A stretch of 57,398 nt of DNA from a virus (IMGVR_UViG_3300048611_000204:1-57398), one strand, 5' to 3'; positions 6,131 to 22,243 are shown, counted from the first letter of the stretch. The notes: generated from the sequence alone by a model not told the origin. Made by a program: numbers and translations.

Positions 6131-6162
6131 ATTAAATTGTTGGGCAGCGCGGAGATAAAACG

Positions 6163-6480
6163 ATGCGAAACAAAACCGATAAATGCCGTTATTTTACCGG
6201 GATACAAAACAAAACATGTGAGATCGGGATCGAATACCCAGTAAGCGATCTGCCTTGCCTCGGAGATCACCAAACTTGTGATAAGCACGAACCATTTTCG
6301 GCGGAAGAATTGGCCGCAAAGAAGGTGGCAATGGATCGACACATGGACTTGATGAGGCGCGGCTTGTCTGGTTGTTGTGAGGCGGAATTTAACACCAACC
6401 AAGTGCTGACCAGCGGGAAGTACAAAGGTCACGGCCCGCGTTTTTGTTCAAAATGTGGGAAGCTGGCATTCATGGTTTAG
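6163..6480 (+). CDS. Cys-rich hypothetical protein (cassette gene)
   Basis: GGAG RBS; bounded by GTTGGGC (6139-6145) and GCCCAAC (6483-6489). Confidence 0.75.
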   Translation: MRNKTDKCRYFTGIQNKTCEIGIEYPVSDLPCLGDHQTCDKHEPFSAEELAAKKVAMDRHMDLMRRGLSGCCEAEFNTNQVLTSGKYKGHGPRFCSKCGKLAFMV

Positions 6481-6482
6481 CA

Positions 6483-6504
6483 GCCCAACACCTTGGGTAA
6501 CTGG
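6483..6504 (-). other. attC-like half site (L'-R' part only)
   Basis: Minus strand CCAGTTACC-CAAGGT-GTTGGGC; partner arm absent. Confidence 0.55.
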
Positions 6505-6554
6505 GCGGGGAGACTGGCGAGAGGTGGCAGGCGGCTATGGAGTTTCACCGAGCC

Positions 6555-6622
6555 GATTAACGATCAAGGTAAGCGGTGAGGCGCGGCCTTTCGCGCCGAT
6601 CCGCTTGACCGCCTGGTTAGGG
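6555..6622 (-). other. integron attC-like site A
   Basis: Minus strand CCCTAAC-CAGGC-GGTCAAGCGG...CCGCTTACC-TTGATC-GTTAATC: 5/6-nt spacers, extra C in L''. Confidence 0.85.
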
Positions 6623-6710
6623 TGATTTTGCACCTCAGAAAAAAACACACATTGCGTATATAATTAGAATCAAGAAGAGGACAAAACAACCCGAACCAAG
6701 GAGAAAGACA

Positions 6711-6932
6711 ATGATCAAAGCATATGCAAGAGAAACCGGGGAACAATATCCACTGTGCAGCCTGTTGGGGGAGCCCGACCATGATGGACTCAGCACCGTA
6801 GCTCCGAAATGCCGAGAGGGGAATGTGGTTTGGGTAGCGGGCGAGCGATGCGTGGTGTATGTGTCTGACCAGGGTAAGGAATATTTGGTCCCGACCACAA
6901 TGGATGGCTCCTTTTATTTGGTCGAAGCATGA
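6711..6932 (+). CDS. hypothetical protein
   Basis: AAGGAG RBS. Confidence 0.7.
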   Translation: MIKAYARETGEQYPLCSLLGEPDHDGLSTVAPKCREGNVVWVAGERCVVYVSDQGKEYLVPTTMDGSFYLVEA

Positions 6933-7184
6933 CCGGCGAAGAGCAAGCGGAGCTTGGCGGCCAACGCTCGTATGTGGGCCATGTTGTCGGACATATCGCG
7001 TCAGATTGATTGGCATGGGCAACGGCTCACCCCGGAGGATTGGAAGATCATGTTTACCACATCCCTCAAACAACAAAGGGTAGTTCCGGGTTTGGAGGGT
7101 AGCGGCTTCGTCGTTTTGGGCGCTTCAACGTCCAAGATGAGTGTTGCGGAGTTGTCACTAAAACAAAAAAGGAGGATAAAATGA
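6933..7184 (+). pseudogene. NinB-family recombination protein fragment
   Basis: RSLAANARMWAMLSDISRQIDWHG..L...DWK..F...VVPGLEG.GFVVLGASTSKMSVAELS; both termini missing. Confidence 0.75.
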
Positions 7185-7390
7185 AGTGCGAAAACTGCGG
7201 CCATGAATGTTATAGGGACGAGGTTCACGTTGGAGTTGGGGTTGTTTCCGGCCCATGGGGGTGTCCTTGCGGATGGAGCGAGGATGATAGATACAATCTT
7301 CTGGATGGACCCAAGAAAACAGCGGAGGGTGGGACCATAGATCAGTATGGCGGGGTTATCCCGAATCGCGACAATGGAGGCATGAAATGA
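7181..7390 (+). CDS. small Cys-rich hypothetical protein
   Basis: AGGAGG RBS; CENC...CPCGW. Confidence 0.7.
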   Translation: MKCENCGHECYRDEVHVGVGVVSGPWGCPCGWSEDDRYNLLDGPKKTAEGGTIDQYGGVIPNRDNGGMK

Positions 7391-7565
7391 AAGAGCTATT
7401 TTGGAGGACGATCTTTCGAAGCACCCCTGCCAAGTGGATATGCTGCGGTTGCAATGGATGGGACACCCGGCGCGGAGCCGGCCATTGAGTACCACCGAAC
7501 CTATCGAGAAACACGGACGCCGAAGGCGTCCCTTGCAGCGCCTTGTTATGGCGCGGGAGACGGAG

Positions 7566-7802
7566 ATGGATAGGACGAAAAATCCAGACATTGAAGCTGG
7601 GTATAAATTTGCATCAGCCGCGATAGAGTCGTTGTGTAAAACGGGGATAGGCGAAGATCCCCTTCTTTTTTACGCATCCATGATTGGCACCCATTTGGGC
7701 AATATTGCGGCCCATATCGGCAAGGCTGCCACGTTGGGGATGATTGATTGTTTGCGGGAGCAAGTGGCGGCAACCCTGCCAGATAAAGGCAAGATGCAGT
7801 AG
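7566..7802 (+). CDS. hypothetical protein
   Basis: GGAG upstream of ATG 7566; ends just before attC-like site B. Confidence 0.5.
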   Translation: MDRTKNPDIEAGYKFASAAIESLCKTGIGEDPLLFYASMIGTHLGNIAAHIGKAATLGMIDCLREQVAATLPDKGKMQ

Positions 7803-7804
7803 CA

Positions 7805-7892
7805 CCATAACGGTAGATTTAAGCGGCGGCGGAGTACTGTTCGCCTGGATCGCTGCTGCATCTTCCGTCCGGCTTCAAATCGTTGGTTATGT
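7805..7892 (-). other. integron attC-like site B
   Basis: Minus strand ACATAAC...TTTGAAGC...GCTTAAA-TCTACC-GTTATGG; imperfect palindrome with one extra base in the left arm. Confidence 0.75.
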
Positions 7893-7908
7893 GCTCATTG
7901 GAGGTGAT

Positions 7909-8073
7909 ATGCTCTATACCGCTGGGAAAGATGAACATTGCCCTGACTGCAATGAGGTTGTGTGCAGGTGCGAAGAATCCCCTGACCCTATCGCTGAAAT
8001 TGACAGAACACTGTCGAAGAAAACAAAACGTCGTCGAGGGCAACGAAGAGCGTCTAATTTATTTTTCACATAA
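7909..8073 (+). CDS. small hypothetical protein (cassette gene)
   Basis: GGAGGTG RBS; stop TAA lies in the ACATAAC core. Confidence 0.65.
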   Translation: MLYTAGKDEHCPDCNEVVCRCEESPDPIAEIDRTLSKKTKRRRGQRRASNLFFT

Positions 8074-8127
8074 CGATGAAGGTAAGCGGCGGACGGTTTA
8101 CCCGTCCGCTTGACCGCTGGGTTCGTT
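8068..8127 (-). other. integron attC-like site C
   Basis: Minus strand AACGAAC-CCAGC-GGTCAAGCGG...CCGCTTACC-TTCATC-GTTATGT; same arms as site A. Confidence 0.85.
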
Positions 8128-8175
8128 TACACCAACAACCCCACGAGCCCGCGCTTTTACTGACTTGGAGGAACA

Positions 8176-8334
8176 ATGAGAGAAATTGCAATCGGTGACA
8201 TTCACGGCTGCGTTCACACGCTTCGCCAGATGATCGAGCAGATTTCCCCGGTACAAGACGACCGCCTTATTTTTCTCGGGGACTATGTAGATCGGGGTTT
8301 TTATTCTGCCCAGGTGATAGAAGAACTACTGTAA
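8176..8334 (+). pseudogene. Ser/Thr phosphatase (metallophosphoesterase) N-terminal fragment
   Basis: 52 aa with GDIHG and GDYVDRG motifs; stops before the GNHE motif. Confidence 0.8.
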
Positions 8335-8639
8335 TGAGAATTTACATTGCTGGCCCTATGTCTGGATTGCCGGAATACAACTACCCGGCGTTTAATTCTG
8401 CTGCCGAGGAACTGCGGCGACAGGGACACGAGGTCGAGAACCCGGCAGAGAACCCGGAACCACCATGTAAAAGTTGGGCAGGCTATATGCGGATGGCCGT
8501 AGCTCAACTGGTTCGGTGTGAGGTTGTGGCGTTGCTGCCTGGGTGGGAAACATCGAAAGGTGCCAGCGTGGAACACCGACTGGCGCACGATCTCGGGCTG
8601 AAAGTGCTGCCGGTTTCCGCATTAGGTATTGCGGCTTAA
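8334..8639 (+). CDS. DUF4406 (nucleoside deoxyribosyltransferase-like) protein
   Basis: IYIAGPMSGLPEYNYPAF...NPAE...LPGWETSKGA..E. Confidence 0.85.
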   Translation: MRIYIAGPMSGLPEYNYPAFNSAAEELRRQGHEVENPAENPEPPCKSWAGYMRMAVAQLVRCEVVALLPGWETSKGASVEHRLAHDLGLKVLPVSALGIAA

Positions 8640-8698
8640 CGACTGAGGTCAAGGGCTCGGCGCAGTTTGCCGAGTCCGCTTGCAGCGATTGGTTATAT
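8634..8698 (-). other. integron attC-like site D
   Basis: Minus strand ATATAAC-CAATC-GCTGCAAG...CTCGGC/GCCGAG...CTTGACC-TCAGTC-GTTAAGC. Confidence 0.75.
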
Positions 8699-8924
8699 GC
8701 CGATGTGCCAACATAACGAAGTGTCTATAAGGGAAATGTTCATCACCTCATATTGTTATGACAGGGAAGGTGGACAATGGACAGGTGGCGAAGGGATGAT
8801 GCCTGATCCGACAGGAAAACTCTATATCAAATGCCGAGAGTGCGGGCTAGATAGGAAGTATTACCGCCATCAAAAAAATATGCCCGCATGGCTGAGACGC
8901 CACTTGGAAGAACTAGGCATATAA
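8697..8924 (+). CDS. hypothetical protein (cassette gene)
   Basis: Fills the interval GTTATAT...ATATAAC; stop TAA lies in the core. Confidence 0.65.
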   Translation: MPMCQHNEVSIREMFITSYCYDREGGQWTGGEGMMPDPTGKLYIKCRECGLDRKYYRHQKNMPAWLRRHLEELGI

Positions 8925-8968
8925 CAAAAAGCACACCGGCCGCAGGTCCGGTGCTGCGGGAGTTGTCA
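8919..8968 (-). other. short or degenerate attC-like site E
   Basis: Minus strand TGACAAC-TCCC-GCAGCACCGG...CCGGTGTGC-TTTTT-GTTATAT; spacers 1 nt shorter than canonical. Confidence 0.5.
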
Positions 8969-9000
8969 AGCAATCCTTTACAACTGGGCGTGAGGAAATC

Positions 9001-9360
9001 ATGAAACATCTATTTGCAGCAGTTGCATTTTTGCTGTTCGGCTGCGGTCAGGAACCAGCGAAGAACATACCTCAACCGCAACCCGACTCAACCGTTGAAG
9101 TCAGAATGACCATCAACTACGGGAACTCGGACGCTATAGCCATGGTCTGCGGTGAGCCCGACATGGCCGTTAAGACAATACGGGGCTGTGCCTTTTCCGA
9201 TGGACTCGTTGATGGGGCGTATCGAGGCACGATCTGGCTGTTAAATGACCATCAGGGCGCCGTATCGCTCGCTGAGCGCATGACTGGCCACGAAGTAAGG
9301 CATATCCTCGGCCACACCCACGCATCGGACCTGGAGCAGGCCCTGCAGCATGGCTTTTAA
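9001..9360 (+). CDS. putative lipoprotein with HExxH motif
   Basis: Signal peptide ending LFGC lipobox; GHEVRHILGH. Confidence 0.65.
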   Translation: MKHLFAAVAFLLFGCGQEPAKNIPQPQPDSTVEVRMTINYGNSDAIAMVCGEPDMAVKTIRGCAFSDGLVDGAYRGTIWLLNDHQGAVSLAERMTGHEVRHILGHTHASDLEQALQHGF

Positions 9361-9385
9361 CCTTTTAACCAAAAAGGAGATTGAA

Positions 9386-9718
9386 ATGAAGGTTCAGGAG
9401 GTACTCGACAGCGCACGATATAACCCCATCCTCGGCTTCTGGTCGGTGTATATCGACACCCGGTGGCGGGTCTACACGGCGAGCACGCTGCACGACCTGC
9501 TGTCTATCCTGACGGCGTACTCGATCCTGCCCGAAGGAAGACCGCCGTTGCGGCTGGTAATCGTCTGTCTCTGGCGGCAGAGGGTGCCGGTAGGCGTCGC
9601 CCTAGCCGAGCTGCACGCCATGGGCTATCGCGGCACCAGCCGCTGCGAGCTGATCCGGGAATGGGTCGGGCTCGATGAAGTAAGCCACCCGTGCGCCATG
9701 AGGTTGGAGGAAGGATGA
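9386..9718 (+). CDS. hypothetical protein
   Basis: AAGGAG RBS before ATG 9386. Confidence 0.55.
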   Translation: MKVQEVLDSARYNPILGFWSVYIDTRWRVYTASTLHDLLSILTAYSILPEGRPPLRLVIVCLWRQRVPVGVALAELHAMGYRGTSRCELIREWVGLDEVSHPCAMRLEEG

Positions 9719-9948
9719 ATCGCAAGTCGTTTATCACACAGCAAATCAGCGAAGCTTTTGTCGTCGGTGACGACTATCTCGACACCAAGAAGATCTCTTC
9801 CGCCTTTATGTCTGAGGACAAGAAGAACGAGCTGCTGCTGGAGATGTCCAAGTTGAAGAAGAAGGCGGGCCGCAAGGCGCAGCCGAAGAAGGAAGTCGCC
9901 GAGTCCAAACCCGCCGAGAAAGAAGGCGAACAAGGGAGCCTGTTATGA
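9715..9948 (+). CDS. hypothetical protein
   Basis: GGAGG RBS; ATGA overlap; ends EQGSLL. Confidence 0.65.
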   Translation: MNRKSFITQQISEAFVVGDDYLDTKKISSAFMSEDKKNELLLEMSKLKKKAGRKAQPKKEVAESKPAEKEGEQGSLL

Positions 9949-10103
9949 ACGTAGTTATCGAAATCGAAAAAACCATCGAAGTCGCTGTTTATGAAGTGTC
10001 TTGCGAGTGCGGACAAATCCTTAAGTTCAAGGCGTCGGCAGACAGCGACTCCGATATTCTCGTTGAGGTCGAAGAACACATCTGCATTCAGGAGGATAAA
10101 TAA
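9945..10103 (+). CDS. small hypothetical protein
   Basis: 52 aa MNVVIEIEK...CECG...HIC; ATGA overlap; absent from ORF track because of size. Confidence 0.6.
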   Translation: MNVVIEIEKTIEVAVYEVSCECGQILKFKASADSDSDILVEVEEHICIQEDK

Positions 10104-10104
10104 T

Positions 10105-10284
10105 ATGGCTACCGACATGCAAATCACCTGGGAAAAGAAAACCTACGACATCCCGGAAGGCTTCACCGTTGCTGAGTTCGTCGACTCGCTGGCATCGAAG
10201 GACCCGAAAGCGGCGACCGCCGAGCTGATCGACGACGGCGACGGCAAATACACCTTGAAGTCCGTCTTCAAGCCGAAGGGGTAG
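10105..10284 (+). CDS. small ubiquitin-like (beta-grasp) candidate
   Basis: AGGAGG RBS; 59 aa; TVAEF..SL....P...A.L......Y.L...KG C-terminus. Confidence 0.5.
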   Translation: MATDMQITWEKKTYDIPEGFTVAEFVDSLASKDPKAATAELIDDGDGKYTLKSVFKPKG

Positions 10285-10367
10285 GTTAATCGAAGGACCG
10301 GAGACGATCGATTGTGTGGGTTCTCGTCTCCGGTTCTTCTTCCCCTGTATTTTGACAAGGAGGCTCT

Positions 10368-10565
10368 ATGGCAAACAACGTCTTCACCATGCACCTCGAC
10401 CTGAGTGGCGACGAGTTCGTCGCCTGGGAGGAAGGTGAGGTCGCCAGACGCCTGCTTTTGATCGTGGAGAAGCTGCGCCATGGTCGAAGGCACGACATTA
10501 TCCTGAACAACAACAACGAACAGATCGGCGCGTATGCGATCAGCGGAGGCTATGACGAGAAATGA
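10368..10565 (+). CDS. hypothetical protein
   Basis: AGGAGG RBS. Confidence 0.7.
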   Translation: MANNVFTMHLDLSGDEFVAWEEGEVARRLLLIVEKLRHGRRHDIILNNNNEQIGAYAISGGYDEK

Positions 10566-10768
10566 AGATAACCAGACACAAGCTGCCACGGTGCAGCTGC
10601 AAGGAAACCATCGACGGCCGGACTCTCGTATGCGGGAAGCCGGCCTTTGCCGTTCACCGGTTGGATTACGGCTTTCAGAAACTGACCATCTACGCCTGCG
10701 AAGACTGCGACCGGAAACTTTCAGCAACCCATGATGCGTACCAGCGCGCGACAGGAGCAATCAAATGA
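10562..10768 (+). CDS. small Cys-containing hypothetical protein
   Basis: ATGA overlaps on both sides. Confidence 0.6.
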   Translation: MKITRHKLPRCSCKETIDGRTLVCGKPAFAVHRLDYGFQKLTIYACEDCDRKLSATHDAYQRATGAIK

Positions 10769-11856: not shown

Positions 11857-11914
11857 AAATTATTCCAAGGGAAGTCATCCCGGCTGCCCTTATTTTTTTC
11901 AAAAGGAGAACATT

Positions 11915-12619
11915 GTGAAAAGATTCGCAGAATTGACCGACGCGGAAGTTATCGAGATCACCAACAACCAAGAGCGGGTTGAGCAGCTGATCGACCTGGA
12001 GTGCGCGTGGCAGGGCATCCCCTTGCTGCCGCCTCACCCCGGCAAGGAACCGGAACTGGAAGAGCTGGCCAATGACTTTCCCTACTACAAAGTCGGCAAC
12101 CTGTGTTTTGCCGATCGCAAAGAAGCCGAAGAAATCTTCGCCGCCGTCCAGAATATGCGCCTGGTCGACTCTGACTACTCGACGCATGTCGTGACCGATC
12201 TGAAGCCCGACGACTACAACTACCCCGAGCTCGAAGCCCGCGCGGGCGTGTCAAAGGAGAATTACAACGCCTATCATGAGCGCACTCAACTTGACCGTGA
12301 GCGCAAAACGGCGTGGCAGGAGCAGATGAACACCTACAACAAGATCGACAAGCAGCGCAGCGCAATTGTGCAGACCTTCTGGGATCGTTTTCACGCTATC
12401 CAGAGCGTTCGCGAACAGATCACCAATATCAACGCCGACCTTGAACGCTATCTGACTCTGGCCGAAGGAAACCAGAACGTAGCGATCAACTTCATGCTCA
12501 ATGCCCGCAAGGACGGCTCGCTTCAAGAAAGAGACGGCGCCCTGCAATATATCGACGAGAAGGGCGTCAGTCACGAAACTGGTATCGCGCGGCCCGACGA
12601 CGTGGTAGATAAATTTTAA
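11915..12619 (+). CDS. hypothetical protein
   Basis: AAGGAG RBS, GTG start, 234 aa. Confidence 0.8.
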   Translation: MKRFAELTDAEVIEITNNQERVEQLIDLECAWQGIPLLPPHPGKEPELEELANDFPYYKVGNLCFADRKEAEEIFAAVQNMRLVDSDYSTHVVTDLKPDDYNYPELEARAGVSKENYNAYHERTQLDRERKTAWQEQMNTYNKIDKQRSAIVQTFWDRFHAIQSVREQITNINADLERYLTLAEGNQNVAINFMLNARKDGSLQERDGALQYIDEKGVSHETGIARPDDVVDKF

Positions 12620-12675
12620 GACGTCATGTGATTTACCGGAGCAGCCTCGCAGGAGGCTGTTCTATTAAATTCCAT

Positions 12676-12707
12676 GTCGCTTCCCGCGCGAAAGCGTAGG
12701 TTGAAAC
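12676..12707 (+). CRISPR. solitary diverged type I-C-like repeat
   Basis: GTCGCTTCCCGCGCGAAAGCGTAGGTTGAAAC; 25/32 identical to the array repeat; two stem pairs changed compensatorily (C-G to T-A). Confidence 0.75.
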
Positions 12708-13321: not shown

Positions 13322-13335
13322 CTTGGAAGGAAGCG

Positions 13336-13369
13336 GTCGCCCCCCCCGCGCGGGGGCGTGGATTGAAAC
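13336..13369 (+). CRISPR. solitary type I-C-like repeat
   Basis: GTCGCCCCCCCCGCGCGGGGGCGTGGATTGAAAC, the array repeat with two extra C. Confidence 0.88.
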
Positions 13370-13514
13370 AATGAGTCGCACAACATCAACGCCGGCCACA
13401 CCGAGTGCCTGAAAAACGCCAAGCATCGGATCATCGCCGACTGTTTCGCGAGGGGGTATTGATGAAGAAACCGTCTTGCCCGACAATCACCAACCTTATC
13501 CACCGGAGGAAAAC

Positions 13515-13688
13515 ATGAATATAATCAGCTGTGAACGATGCGGCTCGACGGAGTTTGGAGTCGAGAAAGATTTCGACAGAGACCGGATCTACTGCAAGAA
13601 CTGCAATGCCCTTTACGGCTATATCAACGGAGCGGCAGATGCCAAGAGCGGTCCCGAAACCGAAGACGATCAGAAACGAACGATATAA
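13515..13688 (+). CDS. small Zn-ribbon protein
   Basis: GGAGGA RBS; CERC...CKNC. Confidence 0.6.
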   Translation: MNIISCERCGSTEFGVEKDFDRDRIYCKNCNALYGYINGAADAKSGPETEDDQKRTI

Positions 13689-13941
13689 GGCGTGGATCAG
13701 ACAGCTTCCGTGCCTCGGCAGATGCGCCGGGCGGGTGCCGGGGCCAAGCAATCCGCATCACCACAACCGGGAAGGACAGGGGTGTATGGCGGGGAAGACC
13801 GACGATAGCCGCTGCATCCCGCTCTGCACGCCCTGTCACCTCGAAGTTCATCGTGGTGCCCTGACCTTTCAGCGGCGCCACAACCTCGACTTCGAGGCGA
13901 TCATCAAACATCTCAACAGAATCTACGAGGAGGCCAAGTGA
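13639..13941 (+). CDS. DUF968-like HNH-fold protein
   Basis: YKAWIRQLPC..C...HH...G.MAGK.DD...IPLC..CH...H. Confidence 0.75.
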   Translation: MPRAVPKPKTIRNERYKAWIRQLPCLGRCAGRVPGPSNPHHHNREGQGCMAGKTDDSRCIPLCTPCHLEVHRGALTFQRRHNLDFEAIIKHLNRIYEEAK

Positions 13942-14405
13942 CTGACTCATTCATCCATTTCGACATGGACAAGGTTCACAGGCTGCGGGAGCACTATCTT
14001 GACGTGCTCAAATTCATCAGGGAAGACAACCCGGCGGTCAACATCAACAGCCCGAAATCGATCAAATCGTTCTGCAAGATCGCGCTCGGCCTGACCCTTG
14101 AAAACACCAGAATCAAGACTATCAACGACAAACTGGCTCTCTTCGACTCGGATTCGATGGAGTATTGCAGTCTGCTCGGGATTCTTTACGCGCTCAAGCT
14201 CAAGTTCGCGATCGCCAACTATCTCGACTGCGTTATCCGCCACCAGCGTGCCGGCGTGCTGCTGCTGCGGATCGTCGACGGCAAGCCGGTGATGTCGAAC
14301 CGGCAGCCGATCTTTTCCTCGCCGGAGATCTGGGAATGTGTGACTGAATGTTCGCCGGATGTTATCATCTACAACACCGGGGCCACCGCATCCAGGGGGG
14401 TGTGA
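13938..14405 (+). CDS. hypothetical protein
   Basis: GAGGAGG RBS, GTGA overlap. Confidence 0.7.
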   Translation: MTDSFIHFDMDKVHRLREHYLDVLKFIREDNPAVNINSPKSIKSFCKIALGLTLENTRIKTINDKLALFDSDSMEYCSLLGILYALKLKFAIANYLDCVIRHQRAGVLLLRIVDGKPVMSNRQPIFSSPEIWECVTECSPDVIIYNTGATASRGV

Positions 14406-14474
14406 CACGAAACCGGAAGCCAGGCCAACACTGGCCTATATTTCGCTCAATTTTGAGCAAGAAAGGGAGCAACT

Positions 14475-15116
14475 ATGTCGCTGTCAGCAGTAAAAGGTTC
14501 GGAAAGTGAAAGCTTTGAAAACCCGGAAGCGGGTTCCTACCCCGCACGTTGCATCCAGGTCATCGAACTGGGTACGTTTCCGAATGATCACCCGGACGCC
14601 AAACCCGGCGCCAAAAAAACCATGATGAAGATTGTCTGGGAACTTTCCGAACCGATGTCGGACGGCCGGCCGTTCACCGTCAACCAGGACTACACGGTCA
14701 GCTTGGGCAAGAATTCCAACCTCTACAAGATGCTGGTCGCCTGGCGCGGTCGCGCATTCACCGCGGAGGAACTGGAAGGCTTCAACATGCAGAATATCCT
14801 CGACAAGCCCTGCCTGATTTCGGTGGTGCTCAAGCCGAGCAAGAAGGACCCGAACAAGGTCTACGCCAACGTCGGCGGCGTCCTGCCGCTGGCCAAGGGG
14901 ATGACGGTTATCGAGCGGGTCAATGATCTGGTCTTCTTCGAGATCGAGAACATCCGCAACCAGGAGGAGTGGGACAAGGTCTGGCCGTGGGTTCAGAAGC
15001 GGATCCTGGCCTCGGATGAAGGCAAAGTCTCCGGCATGCAGGCCAACGAGCCGAAGCATGAAGCGGCGCCGGCGAACGATCCGCCGCTGATGGGCGAGGA
15101 AGAAATTCCTTTCTGA
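14475..15116 (+). CDS. single-stranded DNA-binding-like replication protein
   Basis: G.YPARC..VIELGT...YTVSLG.NSNL...L..WRG; acidic EEEIPF tail. Confidence 0.75.
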   Translation: MSLSAVKGSESESFENPEAGSYPARCIQVIELGTFPNDHPDAKPGAKKTMMKIVWELSEPMSDGRPFTVNQDYTVSLGKNSNLYKMLVAWRGRAFTAEELEGFNMQNILDKPCLISVVLKPSKKDPNKVYANVGGVLPLAKGMTVIERVNDLVFFEIENIRNQEEWDKVWPWVQKRILASDEGKVSGMQANEPKHEAAPANDPPLMGEEEIPF

Positions 15117-15138
15117 GGGCTGCAGATCGACAGTTGAG

Positions 15139-15170
15139 AAAAGCCCCTGGCGCAAGTCAGGGGCTTTTTT
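15139..15170 (+). terminator. intrinsic terminator
   Basis: AAAAGCCCCTGGC-GCAA-GTCAGGGGCTTTTTT. Confidence 0.8.
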
Positions 15171-15194
15171 GTGAAAGATTGGAAGGAGGACAGT

Positions 15195-15683
15195 ATGGCA
15201 ACAAAAAAATACCTGATCGACGCAGCGGCCTTCTACACGCGAATTGCCAACCTGCAGCCGGAAGACCGCGGCAAGTTCGTGCTAAAGGTGTCGATCGATA
15301 TGATGACTGATCAGTGCCAGGAAGACTTTCTGGAGCCGGCGATCGAGCGCAAGAAAGTCACGAAGACCAAACATGACGGCAACTACTCGGATGAGTTCGT
15401 CGCCTGGTGGAGTCTCTACCCGAAAAGGTCTGGCAAGGGGGCCGCCTACAGTATCTGGCTGACCCTGATGGACCGCGCAGCTAACCCGAAGCAATTGGTG
15501 GACGAATTGATGACCGCCCTGAAATGGCAGGTCAAGCAGTATGACTGGACCAAGGAGCGGGGCAAATACGTCCCGATGCCGACCACCTATCTCAACCAGC
15601 GGCGCTGGGAAGACGAGGACCCGAACGCCGGCAGGGAGCGCAGCGGCTACCGGGACGCGGACGGAATCTGGCACGATAATTAA
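15195..15683 (+). CDS. replication initiator / replisome-organizer-like protein
   Basis: F..WWSLYPKR.GK..A...YVPMPTTYLNQRRWED; directly upstream of helicase. Confidence 0.7.
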   Translation: MATKKYLIDAAAFYTRIANLQPEDRGKFVLKVSIDMMTDQCQEDFLEPAIERKKVTKTKHDGNYSDEFVAWWSLYPKRSGKGAAYSIWLTLMDRAANPKQLVDELMTALKWQVKQYDWTKERGKYVPMPTTYLNQRRWEDEDPNAGRERSGYRDADGIWHDN

Positions 15684-15778
15684 TCTTAAAAAGATGGAAT
15701 CCGGATCAAAGCTAAAGCATGATGAACCGCTCGTCATGCTTTTTGCCCGTACCTCTTGCCCACTCCGAAGGGTCTTCT

Positions 15779-16636
15779 ATGATTATTAAGCCACGCCACC
15801 TGAAAATCCAGTTTCAGAAAGTCCGAAAAGGAGAATTTATGAGAAAGGGGCTCTCCACCGGCTACACCGACCTCGACAAGCTGATCCGGCTGGCCAAGGG
15901 ATATCTGATGGTCATCACCGGGATTCCCGGCATGGGCAAGAGCGAGTGGTTGGACGCGGTCCTGGTCAATATGTCGCTTGAGCATGGCTGGAAGACGCTC
16001 TTCTACTCCCCGGAAAATCACCCGATCGAGATGCACATGGGGAAACTGGCGGAGAAATTTATCGGCAAGTCGATTCTGAAATTCACCGAAACCGAAAATG
16101 ACACAGCCATGGAATATCTGGACAATTATTTCCTCTGGACGGACCCTGAAGTGCCGCTGCTCGAAACCCTTCTCGACCAGGCCAAGCTGCAGATCGACAC
16201 AGACGGCCTCGACTGCCTGGTTATCGATCCATGGAACGCGGTCATGCACAAGCGGGCCGCCGCCGAGCTGCTGCACGAATATCTCGCCAACACACTGACC
16301 CGCATCATCAAGTTCGCCCGCGACAACAACGTGCTGATCGCCATCGTAGCGCACCCCAGCAAGCCGCAGAAGGACAAGGACGGCTCTTACCCTGTCCCTA
16401 CCCTCTACGACATCTCTGACGGAGCGATGTGGCGCAACAAGATGGATTACGGAGTCGTTTGCCACCGGCCGGACATGACCAAGAACCAGCTGGCGGTCTA
16501 CGTGCAGAAGATCAAGCAGAAATGGATGGGCAAGGTCGGTATGGAAGTTCTCGACTACGACTGGCAGAGCGGCCGCTTCAAGAACATGAGCGATCAGGAA
16601 TACAAACTCGTGACCGAAATACAGGCACCGTTTTGA
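15779..16636 (+). CDS. DnaB/T7 gp4-like (SF4) replicative helicase
   Basis: Walker A GIPGMGKS, Walker B LVIDP, VAHP, YDISDG; start uncertain. Confidence 0.88.
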   Translation: MIIKPRHLKIQFQKVRKGEFMRKGLSTGYTDLDKLIRLAKGYLMVITGIPGMGKSEWLDAVLVNMSLEHGWKTLFYSPENHPIEMHMGKLAEKFIGKSILKFTETENDTAMEYLDNYFLWTDPEVPLLETLLDQAKLQIDTDGLDCLVIDPWNAVMHKRAAAELLHEYLANTLTRIIKFARDNNVLIAIVAHPSKPQKDKDGSYPVPTLYDISDGAMWRNKMDYGVVCHRPDMTKNQLAVYVQKIKQKWMGKVGMEVLDYDWQSGRFKNMSDQEYKLVTEIQAPF

Positions 16637-16645
16637 GGAGTAATT

Positions 16646-17339
16646 ATGCTGAACATCCCCAGTTTCTACCCGACGCCCGCCCTTCTTGCGTCGAAAATGC
16701 TGTCAAAGATAAAAGGCTACCCCACCCGCTGGCTGGAGCCTTCCGCCGGCAAGGGCGACCTGGCCGAACAGATCAGAACCAGGTATAAATCCTCCTACGG
16801 AAGCCAGGCGCAAATTTTCTGTATCGAAAAAGACAATGATCTGCAGGCGACTCTCCGCGGCAAGGGCTTCACGCTTCTCGACTCCGACTTTCTGACCTAC
16901 TCTGCCCCCGACCAGTTCGACGCGATCCTCATGAACCCGCCCTTCGAGAGCGGTGAGAATCATCTACTCAAGGCGATAGAAATCATGTATCGCGGTCAAA
17001 TCGTCTGCCTGCTGAACGCCGAGACGATCAGACACCCGTTCACCAACAACCGCCGGCGGCGCCAACAAGGGATCGTCGACCTACTTCGACTTCGTCTGTT
17101 ACAAGAAGGGGACGATTCACCTGACATTCCGAAGCGAGAATATCCTGCGTCGCTTCAACGTCACCGCCTGCAAGGGAAAGGGCTGGTTGCCGGGAGACTA
17201 CGGGGCCAGACCCTACGAGCAGCTGAGCGTGCTGGAGCGTGAACTGGTCGAGCAGTTCGAGGTCAAGCACGCGGATTATGTTCAGAATCAGGGACAAAAG
17301 CTTTTCTCCGCCAAGAACACGCTGCAGATCACGATTTAG
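16646..17339 (+). pseudogene. adenine methyltransferase with DUF4942-like C-terminus, internally deleted and frameshifted
   Basis: LEPSAGKG and MNPPF in the first frame; YFDFVCYKKGTIHLTF...GWLP continues in another frame from ~17060 to TAG 17339. Confidence 0.75.
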
Positions 17340-17347
17340 GAGGGCTG

Positions 17348-17821
17348 ATGGCCAGTTATTTCAAGACCCTGCAAATAGCAAAGGAGATGGACTTCGACCC
17401 GCGGGAAGCGGCGCTGTGCAGGATTCGCTTCCTGCAGCCGCTGCTCGACTTCTACAAACAGGATTACTTCTGCGACGACGAGCTGAACCGCTTCGTCGCG
17501 CGGCGCTGGGGAGGTGAGATAGAGGAAGAGATAAATTACCTGAACAAGAACACCATTCACCAGAGAGAATTCGACCCGATCAACGATATCGACGACGCGC
17601 GCATCGAGCGGGCCAGGGATTACCCTCTGGAAAAACTGATCGACTTCAAAAACGGAGTTGCCCTGGCCTTCTGTCATCAGGATAATTCGCCCTCGCTCTC
17701 CCTGCACAGAAAAGCCAACCGCGCTAGATGCTTCGTCTGCGACAAGAGTTTCAATTCGGTAGATGTAATGATGGAGGTCTTCGGCTTCTCCTTTATCGAT
17801 GCTGTAAAGGCCCTGACCTGA
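17348..17821 (+). CDS. CHC2 zinc-finger (primase Zn-binding domain) protein
   Basis: FCHQDNSPSLS...CFVC...D.M....SFIDAVKAL. Confidence 0.75.
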   Translation: MASYFKTLQIAKEMDFDPREAALCRIRFLQPLLDFYKQDYFCDDELNRFVARRWGGEIEEEINYLNKNTIHQREFDPINDIDDARIERARDYPLEKLIDFKNGVALAFCHQDNSPSLSLHRKANRARCFVCDKSFNSVDVMMEVFGFSFIDAVKALT

Positions 17822-17832
17822 AAAGGATTTTT

Positions 17833-18165
17833 ATGAAGGTACAAATCAAAAGGCTGGATGGGAAACGCTGGAAGCCGCTGCTGGCTGAGGAATTGGTCGG
17901 CAAGTCGACTATCGACTTCCTGCTGGAAAGCCAGGACACCCTGGTCGCCGCGGCGTTCGACCCGGGCACCGACAAGCCGTTCCTCTTTATCTCCAACAAC
18001 CCGACCTACGTCGAGATGTACAAGGAGCGGGGCGTGAGCCTGAGCGCCAAGGACGTTCGCAGCCTGTTTCTGTCCGAGAACGTCCCGCAGGTCGTCGCGC
18101 ACGTCTTCCCGGACGGAGAAATCGGCGCGATGACCGCTATTTCGGAGCAGGGAAACCTGCTTTGA
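17833..18165 (+). CDS. hypothetical protein
   Basis: AAGGA RBS; ends EQGNLL. Confidence 0.7.
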   Translation: MKVQIKRLDGKRWKPLLAEELVGKSTIDFLLESQDTLVAAAFDPGTDKPFLFISNNPTYVEMYKERGVSLSAKDVRSLFLSENVPQVVAHVFPDGEIGAMTAISEQGNLL

Positions 18166-18175
18166 CATTTTTCTT

Positions 18176-18205
18176 TTGACAAGACGCCGTGGGAAAAAGT
18201 ATCTT
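18176..18205 (+). promoter_or_regulatory. sigma70-like promoter candidate
   Basis: TTGACA-N18-TATCTT at the start of a long intergenic region. Confidence 0.45.
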
Positions 18206-18323
18206 GTCCAAACGAAATTAACAGATTGGCATTGTCGGGATACCAGTCTGAGAGAAAAGAGCAGCAACATCGCTCGAACCCGCTACGGAGCCCGACACTC
18301 CAAGGCGGGTTTTTTTTGTGCAA

Positions 18324-18553
18324 AATCCAGGGTGGTCAGGTCTATCGGGTAGCGCCCTGGATTGTTCATCCCGTACTATGCGAGCTCAAAACGGGAACCG
18401 TGGGTACAGACCTAGAGCGGTGAGTGATCGGCTGATACAGAGCTGATAATAGTCTAGGGTCAAAGTCGCTCCACTGTATCAGGTGAGCGTCCGAGCGGCG
18501 AGCGATCTTATACGGCTGTTCGAAAGGTACTGACTCCACGATAGGGTCAGTGC
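18324..18553 (+). ncRNA. candidate structured RNA or element
   Basis: Four consecutive stems plus a possible pseudoknot in an intergenic region. Confidence 0.4.
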
Positions 18554-18616
18554 GACCAGCTCACGAAGCTAACCGGCTGTTGAAAAGAAATAACTGATAA
18601 TATTTAAGGAGATCTT

Positions 18617-19069
18617 ATGGAAGTTTGTAGTTGCGGTTCTCGAATGAAGGTTTGTACCCAGCACAAGGTTGCAGGCTCCGAGTGCACCGGTTGCGGCAAG
18701 CGTATTTGGAATAGCCAAGCCGATCTCGATCTGGCAACCATCAATTCGCGCGACATAACAGAAGAATTAGAGGTGGGGTGGCCGGATAAAATGACTTGTT
18801 CAACTTGCCGGTGGTGGGTACTCGACAAAAATGACAGCTACAACTCACTGATTTCACCGGAAGACCCGGTGACGTACGAGCAGGAGAAGACGGAAGAGGC
18901 CATCGCCACCAAGTGGGGCCACGTTGTGCGGCGCTGTCGCTGCCCAAAGATTACGTTCTATCAGCGCCCGGAGCGCGACGGGGCTACCGTGTGTGACGGG
19001 TCGGAATATATGGCGCAACTGCTTACGGGGCCGGACTTCGGCTGTATCCATCATGAGCCGAACGATTAA
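18617..19069 (+). CDS. Cys-rich hypothetical protein
   Basis: AAGGAG RBS; several CxxC. Confidence 0.65.
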   Translation: MEVCSCGSRMKVCTQHKVAGSECTGCGKRIWNSQADLDLATINSRDITEELEVGWPDKMTCSTCRWWVLDKNDSYNSLISPEDPVTYEQEKTEEAIATKWGHVVRRCRCPKITFYQRPERDGATVCDGSEYMAQLLTGPDFGCIHHEPND

Positions 19070-19195
19070 AACAATAGCCACTGAGTCGGTAACGGCTCCA
19101 AGCCGCGAGGTGGGTATCAAGTTCGGGGGGGTAGAGTACCTTCTGGAGGAAGCCTGTGGATGCTACGACGGGTAGAGGTTTTGCGCCGATTTAGA

Positions 19196-19329
19196 ATCTA
19201 ACGATCAAAGATAAGGGGATTGCGGATATGACGACACCGAAAGACAAATACTCTGAACCTGATGTTTATGTCTGCCCTGCTTGCGGAAAGCCCAGTGGTA
19301 GCAATTCCCTCTTAATTAACGGGTTAGGG
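19196..19329 (-). other. integron attC-like site G (long loop)
   Basis: Minus strand CCCTAAC-CCGTT-AATTAAGAGGGAATTGC...GCAATCCCCTTATCT-TTGATC-GTTAGAT. Confidence 0.7.
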
Positions 19330-19536
19330 GGCGGGGCTGAACGGGCCACCATTGACAAGGCGTTGAAACTGGCCGTTGAGTATGGCGGAATTGACGGCGC
19401 TCACCACAAGGACTGGGTAATAGACCAGGTGATCAGGATACTGGCCGGCGATGGTTACGACAAGCTGGTGGCTGAAAGCTGTGATGGAGAGGATGGCCCG
19501 AACACATATGGCTGGGATTGCGGTATAGCACCCTAA
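19228..19536 (+). CDS. hypothetical protein (cassette gene, starts inside site G)
   Basis: YGGIDGAHHKDWVIDQ..R.L...WD.GIAP; stop TAA in CCCTAAC core. Confidence 0.7.
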   Translation: MTTPKDKYSEPDVYVCPACGKPSGSNSLLINGLGGGAERATIDKALKLAVEYGGIDGAHHKDWVIDQVIRILAGDGYDKLVAESCDGEDGPNTYGWDCGIAP

Positions 19537-19615
19537 CGATTGAGGTCAGCGGACCGGTGGGGCGCTGACGGAAAACACTGCCATATCAACCTCCGCTGCA
19601 TTGGGCTGGTTGGAT
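19531..19615 (-). other. integron attC-like site H
   Basis: Minus strand ATCCAAC...TGCAGCGG...CCGCTGACC-TCAATC-GTTAGGG. Confidence 0.7.
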
Positions 19616-19639
19616 GGCAATCTAACTACGGAGACGAGA

Positions 19640-19885
19640 ATGCAGACATTAACCTACCCTGTAACTGATGAGCGCCATCGCCGCGCTATTGCCCACCGTA
19701 ACTTTTGCCCAGAATGCGGGTCTGAGGTGGATACCGGCTGGGAGTGCAATAACCGAGAGTGCCAGTATGACGCCAGAGACGAAGCGTTGTCGGTGACCAA
19801 TGCTGATGTGCTGGCGCTGCTGGTATGGGAGCGGGCAGATGAGCGGCCCGCGATTGACCAGCGCGGAACTGGGCGTTACTGCTAG
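19640..19885 (+). CDS. small Zn-ribbon protein (cassette gene)
   Basis: GGAG RBS; CPECG...C....C. Confidence 0.6.
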   Translation: MQTLTYPVTDERHRRAIAHRNFCPECGSEVDTGWECNNRECQYDARDEALSVTNADVLALLVWERADERPAIDQRGTGRYC

Positions 19886-19887
19886 AC

Positions 19888-19910
19888 AGCCAACGATGCT
19901 ATCAGCGGAC
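19888..19910 (-). other. attC/attI-like half site
   Basis: Minus strand GTCCGCTGATAGCATC-GTTGGCT; no partner arm found. Confidence 0.45.
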
Positions 19911-20030
19911 GGCGACGGACCGCCCGCGAATCACTGAATTATTTAAGGATAATCAATAATGGTCAGCCCGAGATTGAACGGCATGCGGTCGTTCAATCGG
20001 GCCGATCAATTAACAAGGAGGATTTACTAG

Positions 20031-20306
20031 ATGGCAGAATCTATTTCGTTACCCAGATACAAATGTCACAAGGTCGTGCAGGCGGCCAGGATCACTCGTA
20101 TTGACAGACGCGGCACACCGGAGGTCAAAGTCTTGATTCTCGGTGAAGCAGGCCAGGAACTTGTAATCAACGACGAGTTTGCCAATAAGCACCATCCAAA
20201 GGTCGGCAAATATCTCGTTGTTTACGAAGACGGCCACAAGTCTATTACGCCAACTGAGGTCTTCGAGGCCGGCTATGCCCTGATCGAAGAGGAGGAGTCT
20301 GAATAA
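20031..20306 (+). CDS. hypothetical phage protein
   Basis: AGGAGG RBS; LPRYKCHKVV.A...G.YLVVYEDG..S..P...FEAGY. Confidence 0.8.
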   Translation: MAESISLPRYKCHKVVQAARITRIDRRGTPEVKVLILGEAGQELVINDEFANKHHPKVGKYLVVYEDGHKSITPTEVFEAGYALIEEEESE

Positions 20307-20629
20307 TGGAACTCATAACCAGAACCCTGCCGTCTCTGTTGAGCGACGAGCAGCGCAACGCTTACGGACAGGAGCAGGCCAAGTTGCTTGTCGAGATCAA
20401 GTCCCTCGAAGCGGATCGCACCGAAGCCAACCGGCGTATCAAGCCTAAGCGGACCCGCGTCAACTACTTGGCGCCGGTCATCGACTCCGGCATGGAACAC
20501 AAGGAAGTCGAGTGTTATTGGGAATATCACTGGGAGCAAGGCGTGAAAAACCTGCGCCGGCACGACACCGACGAAATCGTCGAGGACACAGTCCCGATTG
20601 AGGACTACGAATCGCAGATGAACCTTTGA
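20306..20629 (+). CDS. hypothetical protein
   Basis: GAGGAG RBS; ends SQMNL. Confidence 0.75.
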   Translation: MELITRTLPSLLSDEQRNAYGQEQAKLLVEIKSLEADRTEANRRIKPKRTRVNYLAPVIDSGMEHKEVECYWEYHWEQGVKNLRRHDTDEIVEDTVPIEDYESQMNL

Positions 20630-20634
20630 TCGAC

Positions 20635-20755
20635 AGGGCGCTACCGTCTAAAGTGGCTGGCGCGAGACGTCGGGTTAAGCGCCGGCCAAGTACTGTCTGG
20701 TACTGAGATCAACAGCCCCTCTCCCCCTCCGGGGCTGCTCAAGTCAGACCGCCCT
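20635..20755 (+). ncRNA. candidate three-way-junction RNA
   Basis: Closing stem AGGGCG/CGCCCT enclosing two hairpins; followed by a terminator. Confidence 0.4.
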
Positions 20756-20765
20756 TTGTTTCATG

Positions 20766-20796
20766 CCCCCGCTTCTCTGAAAAGCGGGGGTTTTTT
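20766..20796 (+). terminator. intrinsic terminator
   Basis: CCCCCGCTT/AAGCGGGGG followed by TTTTTT. Confidence 0.8.
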
Positions 20797-20834
20797 CGTT
20801 GTTTGCCATGCGCATATTGCTGGCAGGAGGAAGG

Positions 20835-21119
20835 ATGGGCTATCCAGATCCAGACATCAGATTGAAGAAGGAGTATGGCGGCGTCAGGGCCGCGCTCGAA
20901 TACTGCGTCTCGTTGAACTTGAACAAGACCCAGGCGGCCAACCTATTGGGGATCGATCGCGCGACCCTCAGAGAGCGAGCCAGGCGTTATAACGTCGCCT
21001 TCCCGGACGGATATGCGACCCGTGACACGACGCTGGCCAGAGAAATCAGCCGGGAACGAATCATCGCCGGGAATCAAAACGGAAACATGGGCGGCCGGAG
21101 ACGATGGAAAAAGGTCTGA
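20835..21119 (+). CDS. Fis-type helix-turn-helix protein
   Basis: NKTQAANLLGIDRATLRER; AGGAGG RBS. Confidence 0.75.
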   Translation: MGYPDPDIRLKKEYGGVRAALEYCVSLNLNKTQAANLLGIDRATLRERARRYNVAFPDGYATRDTTLAREISRERIIAGNQNGNMGGRRRWKKV

Positions 21120-21241
21120 ACGGCCTGGCCGTGTCCACCGCAATTAAATTAATATCTACACAGATTTAACCGAGAAAAGGGATGTATCATGATTTCAGTT
21201 GAACGATTAGCTAACGGGCTTGCGGCCCTACGGAGGAGAAC

Positions 21242-21613
21242 ATGGGAATTGGAGAGAGATTTGAATTCGAGAAGACGGGCCGAATAGACCCAGAGCGTAG
21301 CAAGTCCGCCGTGCAGCGTTTGGTTAGCGCCTTTTCGGAGCACGACTGTCTCTGCTGCGGACCGTTTGAGGGCGACTTTGGTTCCCCGGATGACCGCATC
21401 TTGAAAGACAAAATGGTGACAGCCCGCAAGAGCGGGGAATGCCACCTGTGCGGCCAGCAGATACAGCCGAAAGAGCGGATCAGGACCATGGCCGCTGTGT
21501 TCGACGGTGAATTGATGTCGTACCGCTGGTGCAACGCCTGCTGTGCAGCCATGGCAAAGAGCCTGTACGACGATGGCGAAGCATGGGAAGACCGCTCAGC
21601 ATTGAGGCGCTAA
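21242..21613 (+). CDS. Cys-rich hypothetical protein
   Basis: GGAGGAG RBS; stop TAA in the CGCTAAC core of site J. Confidence 0.75.
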   Translation: MGIGERFEFEKTGRIDPERSKSAVQRLVSAFSEHDCLCCGPFEGDFGSPDDRILKDKMVTARKSGECHLCGQQIQPKERIRTMAAVFDGELMSYRWCNACCAAMAKSLYDDGEAWEDRSALRR

Positions 21614-21709
21614 CGGTAAGGGTTGAGCCAGCGCGACGCGCCGCTGGCCGACCACCGAACTTTTCGAGGAGCTGCCGTGTTGAACGTCGGCTCGAACCCA
21701 TTGTTAGAC
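21608..21709 (-). other. integron attC-like site J
   Basis: Minus strand GTCTAAC-AATGG-GTTCGAGCC...GGCTCAAC-CCTTACC-GTTAGCG; extra C at position 4 of L''. Confidence 0.8.
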
Positions 21710-21725
21710 CCATTTGGAGGACGCT

Positions 21726-21947
21726 GTGAAAAGAGAAATTCAGAGATTTACCGTAGGCGACGTTATCAGGATGCCTCATTACCCGACATGCGGCGGCTTC
21801 CGCTGCTGGAAAGTGATAGGCGAACACCTTGGAGGGGTGAAACAGGAAGGCACCTATGAACTTTTGCCGCTGGACGTGGTTGGCAACGAAGCTGTTCATG
21901 TGCCATGCCTAATGTTGGAGACTCACCCGGAAATCGTCAGGGTCTAA
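21726..21947 (+). CDS. hypothetical protein (cassette gene)
   Basis: GGAGG RBS, GTG start; bounded by GTTAGACCC...GGGTCTAAC. Confidence 0.7.
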   Translation: MKREIQRFTVGDVIRMPHYPTCGGFRCWKVIGEHLGGVKQEGTYELLPLDVVGNEAVHVPCLMLETHPEIVRV

Positions 21948-22243
21948 CAATAATTCTACAGCACCCAATGCCGTATAGTCTTTTTCCCTTTTTGGCTTAA
22001 ACCCTTAAAAATGGAGGTCTTTATGAAAATGACAGAGAGACAGGCCCTGCATACGAAGAGCGGGGTCAGGCCGGACCCTCGACGGCGTGGTCCACGATGA
22101 ACTGCCGTGGGACAAGCCAAAACAGGAGGGGCGTTGAGCCCGACCACAAACAGGAAGGAGGAAGATCATGGCTATTCATTGCCCACGCGGAATCTGTGTC
22201 GAGTGTGAAGGGCACTGCGGACTCTGCTTTCAGGAGAAGAAGA

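Follow-up and report, generated by a model that had tools for sequence, protein, structure and literature searches.

Complementarity between the two ends of a gene cassette is a textbook consequence of the integron mechanism. Units bounded by stem-loops are also encountered in phages, where the mobile regulatory cassettes of T4-type phages (PeSL), small accessory genes bounded by a conserved stem-loop, are reported to move as units via circles. Here these and other described systems are compared with a linear virus record from IMG/VR (IMGVR_UViG_3300048611_000204; 57,398 bases, CheckV completeness estimate 83%), the whole of which is referred to as the window. Its early plus-strand region very probably carries three small, integrase-less arrays of integron-type cassettes with reversed polarity: array A (6555-8924), array B (19196-19935) and array C (21209-21947). 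Like PeSL units, these are small accessory genes in plastic phage regions, arranged as stem-loop-bounded units. PeSL are, however, promoter-terminator motifs exchanged by homologous recombination, whereas the sites in the window have the R and L boxes and the unpaired bases of attC sites, features common to bacterial integrons.

Qi et al. (2023) reported 17 integrase-less attC clusters among 10,705 phage genomes, and five of the six sites tested recombined with IntI1. The phages they describe, virulent or uncharacterised, resemble the window in carrying attC clusters without intI and small cassettes mostly of unknown function. Clusters of attC sites in phages are already known from such published accounts, and relative to these it is the reversed polarity that appears to be new. 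In the cluster of phage TJE1 (Qi et al., 2023), matches to a covariance model of bacterial attC sites (R1, described below) lie opposite orf1-3 and an attC lies 3′ of each open reading frame (ORF), three of three, as in bacteria; in the window the model matches lie on the coding strand, each ORF has its attC on the 5′ side, and the hairpin loop may contain the start codon. Reversed polarity with loop-borne starts was not found in the literature searched; supplementary tables, which lay outside that search, might bear on the point. Loot et al. (bioRxiv 10.1101/2022.09.11.507474) describe the insertion by IntI of isolated cassettes and two-cassette clusters at 5′-GWT-3′ outside integrons (SALIN and small CALIN). 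In all arrays of the window the outer junctions are of the form TAA|C (G|TTA when read from the opposite strand); the portions of that work drawn on here concern bacterial chromosomes and canonical cassettes, and do not cover phage insertion or reversed polarity.

At the sequence level the sites compare with chromosomal arrays of Burkholderiales and Rhodanobacteraceae (L083-L202), which come with IntI. Two sites of array A, S1 and S3, are letter-for-letter members of this attC family (TAACG-N5-GGTAAGCGG...CCGCTTGACC-N5-GTT), and the bacterial arrays display the same complementarity of boxes across the cassette. The difference lies in polarity: the longest ATG-initiated ORF is on the top strand in 118 of 126 bacterial intervals of this family (bottom strand in 8 of 126), whereas in four phage arrays the bottom strand carries it in 17 of 22 intervals, and the window record contains neither intI nor a recognised attI.

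Complementary ends and attC hairpins

A sequence-only reading of the window had held that the 7-mer opening each gene interval is the reverse complement of the 7-mer closing it, and named six pairs. All six are found at their coordinates; five are exactly complementary and the sixth (GTTGGAT 19609/AGCCAAC 19888) matches at 6 of 7 positions, while the pair at 21703/21940, GTTAGACCC/GGGTCTAAC, is complementary over 9 of 9. The bare observation is weak, since unanchored pairs are frequent in shuffled sequence: complements of the form GTTNNNN...NNNNAAC, 150-1500 nucleotides apart, number 40 in positions 1-25500, where 200 dinucleotide shuffles gave 27.2 +/- 6.0, and the late region has 47 against 33.1 +/- 6.7. 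A rule tied to gene boundaries (GTT box within -60 to +100 of a start codon, AAC box within +/-12 of the stop of the same gene) recovers an exact pair in 7 of 53 plus-strand genes, against 0.15 expected from 2756 mismatched gene pairings. Comparison with shuffled controls, which the earlier reading had proposed, says little for pairs at large; the mismatched pairings favour those at gene boundaries. The rule adds two pairs absent from the first list, 7545 GTTATGG/7805 CCATAAC and 21323 GTTAGCG/21608 CGCTAAC, the latter complementary 9/9 when extended. That every pair differs in sequence, as had been remarked, is almost correct: GTTAGGG is present at both 6616 and 19323.

For pair statistics, four phage contigs were taken together (the window, L001, L002 and L224), with four variable positions per box. 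Across the gene, 54 of 64 variable positions are complementary in 16 hairpin-anchored adjacent pairs, ten of which are perfect; within single sites the figure is 37 of 84, with perfect matching in only 1 of 21 sites, so that the two ends of one site do match less well, as had been observed. None of 200,000 permutations attained the observed across-gene complementarity. The window alone gives 18 of 24 positions, attained by 2 of 720 permutations, and in the bacterial arrays, which served as a positive control, 61 of 126 intervals have perfectly matching adjacent boxes, where shuffling gives 12%. The pairs 7886/8068, 8692/8919, 19323/19531, 21703/21940 and 19609/19888, each of them anchored by hairpins, are real cassette ends.

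Circularisation in silico, suggested earlier as a check, closes the R box (summed pair probability of at least 4 of 7) for 17 of the 21 cassettes; in the arrangement found in the genome it is closed for 3 of them. The exceptions in the window are the cassettes of S3, S1 and S5, the last with ends matching 6/7. As in classical cassettes, each unit has one attC and ends that rebuild a paired R box when circular; the other classical feature, an ORF on the top strand with the attC at its 3′ end, is not seen in the window, where the bottom strand codes.

The hairpins between genes follow the scheme xxxxAAC - 6 nt - GGTAAGCGG ... CCGCTT(G)ACC - 5 nt - GTTxxxx. In bacterial genomes at least 120 stretches match a 24-base pattern derived from S1 and S3. 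Most of them belong to Burkholderiales and Rhodanobacteraceae; the Burkholderiales among the matches listed are Acidovorax, Ottowia, Comamonas, Methylibium and Roseateles. An IntI above the TIGR02249 cut-off was found 1.7-7.6 kb from the matched sites in four of five pattern-bearing bacterial genomes tested. Model R1 was trained on 58 bacterial attC sites only, and the window was searched with filters off: its seven best matches there (S3, S1, S4, S2, S7, S0B and S5; E 1.4e-12 to 2.2) are all on the plus strand, while 80 loci (1.1 Mb) of helicase-related phages yielded no match at E<=1. Compared with shuffled sequence, DNA folding is good for S1 and S3 and moderate for S4, S7 and S2. Outer boxes of the attC type, 5′-RYYYAAC ... 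GTTRRRY-3′ on one strand with only AAC/GTT invariant in the account of Nivina et al. (2016), are present as xxxxAAC/GTTxxxx at the model ends of all sites, S6 being without its GTT box. In the R1 alignments an unpaired T and G occur in the 3′ arm of S1, S3, S4, S2 and S7, and the spacers measure 6 and 5 nucleotides in S1 and S3; the hairpins of S0B, S5 and C0 are degenerate. By these features the hairpins are true attC sites, and their recombination by an integron integrase is predicted.

Strand, polarity and movement of cassettes

[quoted passage not shown] On viral contigs, R1 matches upstream of IntI homologues are likewise all on the intI sense strand (40 of 40, in 23 loci of which 17 had matches). 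Nivina et al. (2016) place the AAC of the bottom strand in R′, the extrahelical bases on the opposite arm and the crossover between A and C of AAC. The plus strand of the window has its unpaired T and G on the arm opposite AAC, as in the bottom strands of that account, and is the bottom strand; the crossover therefore lies in the left box, and the hairpin belongs with the gene on its right. The earlier proposal that circular cassettes were opened at G|TT is supported as regards integron-type cassettes with ends as expected from a circular intermediate. It needs correction as regards the point of exchange, which is not the plus-strand GTT box; exchange takes place at xxxxAA|C in the box to the left of the hairpin, equivalent to G|TT when the minus strand is read.

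Coding on this strand is evident from several sources. The Pfam domains NinB, Metallophos, DUF4406 and DUF7576 are all on the plus strand. Nucleotide differences between the 73-amino-acid gene at 21726-21947 and its counterpart in L224 are distributed 13/7/47 over the three codon positions, and 32 of 35 differences between the DUF7576 body and that of L001 fall at one codon position; this shows purifying selection on plus-strand ORFs, and with the Pfam matches the plus-strand ORFs are judged to be real. ORF polarity elsewhere is suggestive to equivocal and is not relied on (in 13 other viral loci that have the attC pattern, 29 intervals divide into 13 bottom, 8 top and 8 tied; in 10 IntI-bearing viral loci, 21 intervals divide 8/8/5). 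The difference GC3-GC1 was dropped as a coding-strand call, giving no strand separation even in bacterial arrays (60 vs 66); ORF length and codon-position differences were used instead.

The array ends are asymmetric. At the right, the exact complement of the last right box occurs 220-306 nucleotides downstream, at the stop of the last gene, in five of five arrays, and beyond that point lies unrelated DNA without a hairpin (5/5). No complement of the first left box was found upstream of any of six arrays. In the window, the right-hand limits are 8924|8925 for array A and 21947|21948 for array C; no hairpin follows array A, and its exact end-of-array match at 8919 overlaps the stop codon.

Complementary ends are also retained by homologous cassettes on three viral contigs unrelated to the window. 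The DUF7576 gene (21242-21613) recurs in L001 and L002, which have nothing else in common with the window by DNA or tblastx comparison; in all three the DNA homology is confined to the stretch between GTTAGCG and CGCTAAC, boxes included. The gene is preceded in L001 and L002 by a clear attC ending in GTTAGCG (R1 E 9.8e-8 and 0.0098), with ribosome-binding site (RBS) and ATG in the loop, and in L002 the unit is followed by a different hairpin and gene, closed by GTTATGTG/CACATAAC. The 73-amino-acid gene recurs within a five-site array in L224 with 61 of 74 residues identical. Its boxes are GTTAGGG/CCCTAAC there and GTTAGAC/GTCTAAC in the window, a compensatory change. Among 401 Burkholderiales genomes a DUF7576 homologue was found in one, and attC is absent at that locus. 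A protein search with the DUF7576 cassette protein returned 63 clusters (P0001-P0063), nearly all from short metagenome contigs (0.5-4 kb) without context; some clusters are large (up to 227 members), the N-termini vary and query coverage is about 73-88%.

The layout consistent with these observations would be C - attC hairpin - GTTxxxx - small gene - xxxxAA, with the hairpin ahead of its own gene and the bottom, recombined strand acting as the coding strand. At least two cassettes have an RBS and start codon in the hairpin loop, and in six of eight bounded cassettes the gene stops with a TAA that also forms part of the next crossover, TAA|C. The complementary 7-9-mers would then be two halves of the cassette's own R box, paired in the circular or folded form; opening of the circle between A and C of AAC and joining to a G|TT-type phage target would leave the halves at opposite ends of the gene. 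Complementary ends derived from a circular intermediate, as first proposed, agree with the family model, the pair statistics and the in-silico circularisation. The presumed steps are catalysis by an integron integrase (of the host, or encoded by a phage gene in the missing 17% of the record), circular intermediates, and the founding of each array at a secondary site.

The arrays in the phage genome

All sites and cassettes described here are on the plus strand. Array A opens with S1 (6555-6622; left box GATTAAC, right box GTTAGGG; R1 E 2.9e-12; fold z -3.05), which matches the 24-base pattern. S1 heads cassette A1 (6561-7511), with ORFs 6711-6932 and 7181-7390 and a NinB fragment (6954-7184; PF05772, E 2.7e-26) that covers profile positions 43-112 of 131 only, both ends missing. 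The ends of A1 match at 3/7, circularisation fails to close its R box (summed pair probability 0.06), and the cassette is probably rearranged. A short hairpin site at 7506-7551 (left GAGAAAC, right GTTATGG; fold z -1.32), obtained by heuristic search, heads A2 (7512-7810; ORF 7566-7802), in which the R box of the exact pair 7545/7805 goes from 0.84 to 6.85 of 7 on circularisation. S2 (7805-7892; R1 E 0.009; z -1.35) heads A3 (7811-8073; ORF 7909-8073; ends GTTATGT/ACATAAC, 7/7), S3 (8068-8127; R1 E 1.4e-12; z -2.74) heads A4 (8074-8639), and S4 (8634-8698; R1 E 1.5e-4) heads A5 (8640-8924; ORF 8736-8924; ends GTTATAT/ATATAAC, 7/7).

The mismatched interval 8121-8640, previously described as a truncated phosphatase abutting DUF4406, has that composition: by Pfam, A4 contains a fragment of a calcineurin-like phosphoesterase (Metallophos; 8176-8334; 52 amino acids, profile positions 4-53 of 191) abutting a complete DUF4406 (8334-8639), with boxes GTTCGTT/GCTTAAC complementary at 3/7. 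The second mismatched interval, 6623-7505 (3/7), is the one that contains the NinB fragment. Deletion or rearrangement hybrids are a reasonable origin for both, and deletions may be the cause of the mismatch.

One of the six named pairs stands apart. ORF 6163-6480 (6139-6489) is flanked by GTTGGGC/GCCCAAC at 6139/6483, complementary 7/7. The pair is exact and in place at the ORF borders, 72 nucleotides from array A, but R1 finds nothing there and neither box has a hairpin beside it; CRISPR-like repeats occupy the place where an attC is expected. Two relatives of the ORF give no support, one (L211) having an AAC box and hairpin after the stop with no GTT box upstream, the other (L212) neither box. 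The pair is thus unproven as a cassette and may be a decayed cassette or chance. By eye only, 6483-6554 (GCCCAAC - 6 nt - GGTAAC...) resembles the 5′ half of a decayed attC whose expected right box is the left box of S1; R1 does not support it.

The CRISPR-like repeats directly upstream of GTTGGGC 6139 are two identical 32-nucleotide copies (6034-6065 and 6099-6130) around one 33-nucleotide spacer. Single copies, 78% and 91% alike, are located at 12676-12707 and 13338-13369. In 3 of 401 Burkholderiales genomes, a repeat that differs at three positions occurs in arrays (43, 67 and 32 copies, spaced by about 66 nucleotides). The whole looks like a phage-borne mini-CRISPR array with solitary repeats, of what we take to be type I-C; Rfam at the gathering threshold made no call on the repeat.

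Array B starts with S0B (19196-19329; 134 nucleotides; R1 E 0.32 over a full-length alignment; fold z +0.52), which heads B1 (19202-19536; ends GTTAGGG/CCCTAAC, 7/7). Its loop contains the RBS, the ATG (19228) and the first ~32 codons of ORF 19228-19536, so that GTTAGGG 19323, the right box of S0B, is inside the ORF and not upstream of the gene. Homologues of this ORF in 11 viral loci match only from residue ~19-45 on, near the GTT box (~residue 32); no R1 match at E<=1 was found in these loci, and the relatives are plain genes. S5 (19531-19615; R1 E 2.2, weak; z -0.45) heads B2 (19537-19893; ORF 19640-19885; ends GTTGGAT/AGCCAAC, 6/7). S6 (19888-19935), read from the sequence, is the 5′ half of an attC: it retains the left box AGCCAAC and the 5′ arm and has neither a 3′ arm nor a right box.

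In two other runs, X2 and X3, from two studies, contigs join 18586 directly to 19936 (shorter sides 187 and 134 letters). The form in these runs is without a 1349-bp block, 18587-19935, comprising gene 18617-19069 and array B. The right edge of the block falls inside S6, which explains why S6 is without its 3′ half. One X2 contig fits 20579-21208 and continues with 286 letters unlike the window, diverging one base before the left box of C0. Stretches uncovered in runs X2-X4 were given no weight. Contig joints with short sides (22-38 letters; 8123->8638, 7890->19196, 21328->8079, and the skips 19227->19297 and 21228->21297) were not taken as rearrangements of the phage; they are ascribed to further attC sites of the same family that the samples contain.

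In array C, the degenerate attC C0 (21209-21329; left AGCTAAC, right GTTAGCG; fold z -0.07), with RBS and ATG 21242 in its loop, heads C1 (21215-21613), which encodes the DUF7576 protein and has ends GTTAGCGCC/GGCGCTAAC, 9/9. S7 (21608-21709; R1 E 0.083; z -1.70) heads C2 (21614-21947), the cassette of the 73-amino-acid gene.

In this tailed phage the first 25 kb hold small plus-strand genes together with primase/helicase, exonuclease and the NinB fragment, and late genes (large terminase, head-tail adaptor, tail and structural proteins) occupy the minus strand from ~25.5 kb on. The closest relative through the helicase, L003, has a backbone in common with the window at 12.7-18.0 kb and 22.4-24.7 kb but not at 18.2-22.4 kb; arrays B and C are therefore in a plastic region of the phage genome. 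At 18166-18616 are 450 nucleotides without a convincing ORF, with a GC-rich hairpin followed by a T run at ~18276-18318. Rfam at the gathering threshold and ARAGORN gave no matches in the window. Among the late genes is a 3052-amino-acid ORF (28771-37929, minus strand), in which PHROGs recognises only a family of unknown function at the N-terminus and a DprA-like stretch (residues 596-722); the idea of an N4-like virion RNA polymerase with hairpin promoters was dropped on this result.

Competing explanations and significance

By number of R1 sites (array A four, array B two, array C one and a degenerate one) the window fits the definition of a CALIN used in Qi et al. (2023), a cluster of at least two attC sites that has no integrase in its vicinity; the mark of a complete integron, intI (TIGR02249) beside the array, is absent from the record. 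The attC family points to Burkholderiales or Xanthomonadales-type hosts, which do carry IntI, and with the record 83% complete a distant intI in the missing 17% is possible. The records of L002, L224, L211, L246 and L234 show neither IntI nor any other tyrosine recombinase; like those of L001 and the window, they are all incomplete (45-83%). A tyrosine recombinase of L001 was ruled out as IntI (50 bits against a cut-off of 265) and is a non-IntI integrase. Full-length relatives of the integron integrase, 52-71% identical, are encoded by 328 stretches in IMG/VR contigs, of which 80 were kept (L259-L338). In 17 of 23 mid-contig loci of this kind attC arrays are present upstream of intI, and a phage-borne enzyme acting on cassettes is therefore possible; some of these stretches may be prophage edges or host DNA.

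Several observations weigh against integron-type cassettes of reversed polarity. The profiles TIGR02249 and PF00589 have no match in the 57.4-kb record, which thus shows neither IntI nor another tyrosine recombinase. R1 support is weak for S7, S0B and S5, the model misses C0, the 7506 site and S6 altogether, and S0B, S5, S6 and C0 fold no better than shuffled sequence. For several small cassettes the coding strand rests on an ORF and RBS only. Scans of metagenome contigs with backbone proteins gave no relative, and no empty site came to light, the helicase protein of the closest relative being only 56% identical. Hairpins before homologous genes show no detectable likeness beyond that of attC sites paired at random (S7 and its counterpart in L224, 0.61, not the top match; C0 and L001, 0.61, top only marginally), and joint inheritance of hairpin and gene is therefore a presumption. 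Finally, the ends of the 1349-bp block are not AA|C points and have in common a short GAA...ATTTAAGGA-like stretch.

The last two points would suit a different history, in which the units are shuffled mainly by phage homologous recombination at the hairpin arms, much as for PeSL, the hairpins serve chiefly in regulation or translation start, and the integrase plays a minor part today. The phage encodes an exonuclease and carries the NinB fragment, RBS and ATG do lie within loops, and the sole difference seen in the population (1349 bp, two runs) ends in short RBS-like stretches and inside S6. This is nevertheless unlikely: the sites are members of the bacterial attC family at the sequence level, the right ends of all five arrays are clean xxxxAA|C joints to unrelated DNA with no hairpin arm, and the compensatory change implies selection on R-box pairing, which has no role in homologous exchange. 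It is scarcely credible that the pattern arose by chance or from an assembly chimera of a phage and a bacterial integron. Unanchored 7-mer complements are indeed frequent (40 vs 27), yet the gene-boundary test and the permutations (0/200,000) tell otherwise, and three separate arrays lie between phage genes with phage-like genes (NinB, DUF4406, phosphatase) in their cassettes. Logan contigs of the likely source run also extend unbroken over 6102-8950 and 13342-23000, as a second assembly of the same data and not an independent sample.

The order on the plus strand (gene, stop in xxxTAAC, hairpin, GTTxxxx) resembles a textbook array, the published phage cluster of TJE1 is built in that way, and end complementarity by itself fits either polarity. 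The cassettes could on those grounds, and as the earlier reading implied, be written TTxxxx - gene - xxxxAAC - hairpin - G, opened at the plus-strand G|TT of the right box, with the hairpin owned by the gene on its left. Such a canonical polarity is very improbable, given that R1 matches the plus strand only, that this strand is the bottom strand by both intI geometry and unpaired bases, that the first left box has no partner upstream, and that arrays close with a gene and box but no hairpin.

The matching ends are direct sequence evidence of repeated integron-type site-specific recombination on a phage genome, and the sites are more than a collection of attC look-alikes. The reversed build is opposite to that of bacterial arrays of the same attC family and of TJE1. 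A wider proposal, offered tentatively and a little short of an even call, is that phages keep a cassette pool of their own with opposite polarity, in which the attC bottom strand would have the sense of the mRNA. The hairpin would there be a 5′ leader able to carry the RBS, start and first codons, the TAA stop would double as the crossover, and cassettes would pass between unrelated phages by way of host or phage integron integrases, landing at TAA|C behind phage genes. If so, integrons would be a two-way route of gene exchange between phages and their hosts, and small phage accessory genes, possibly with counter-defence functions, could spread among unrelated phages. Ordinary phage genes of the NinB, phosphatase and DUF4406 types would be recruitable as cassettes, providing a natural system for the birth of cassettes, and the acquisition of an attC by a gene would be testable on phage genes with and without one, such as the family of ORF 19228-19536.

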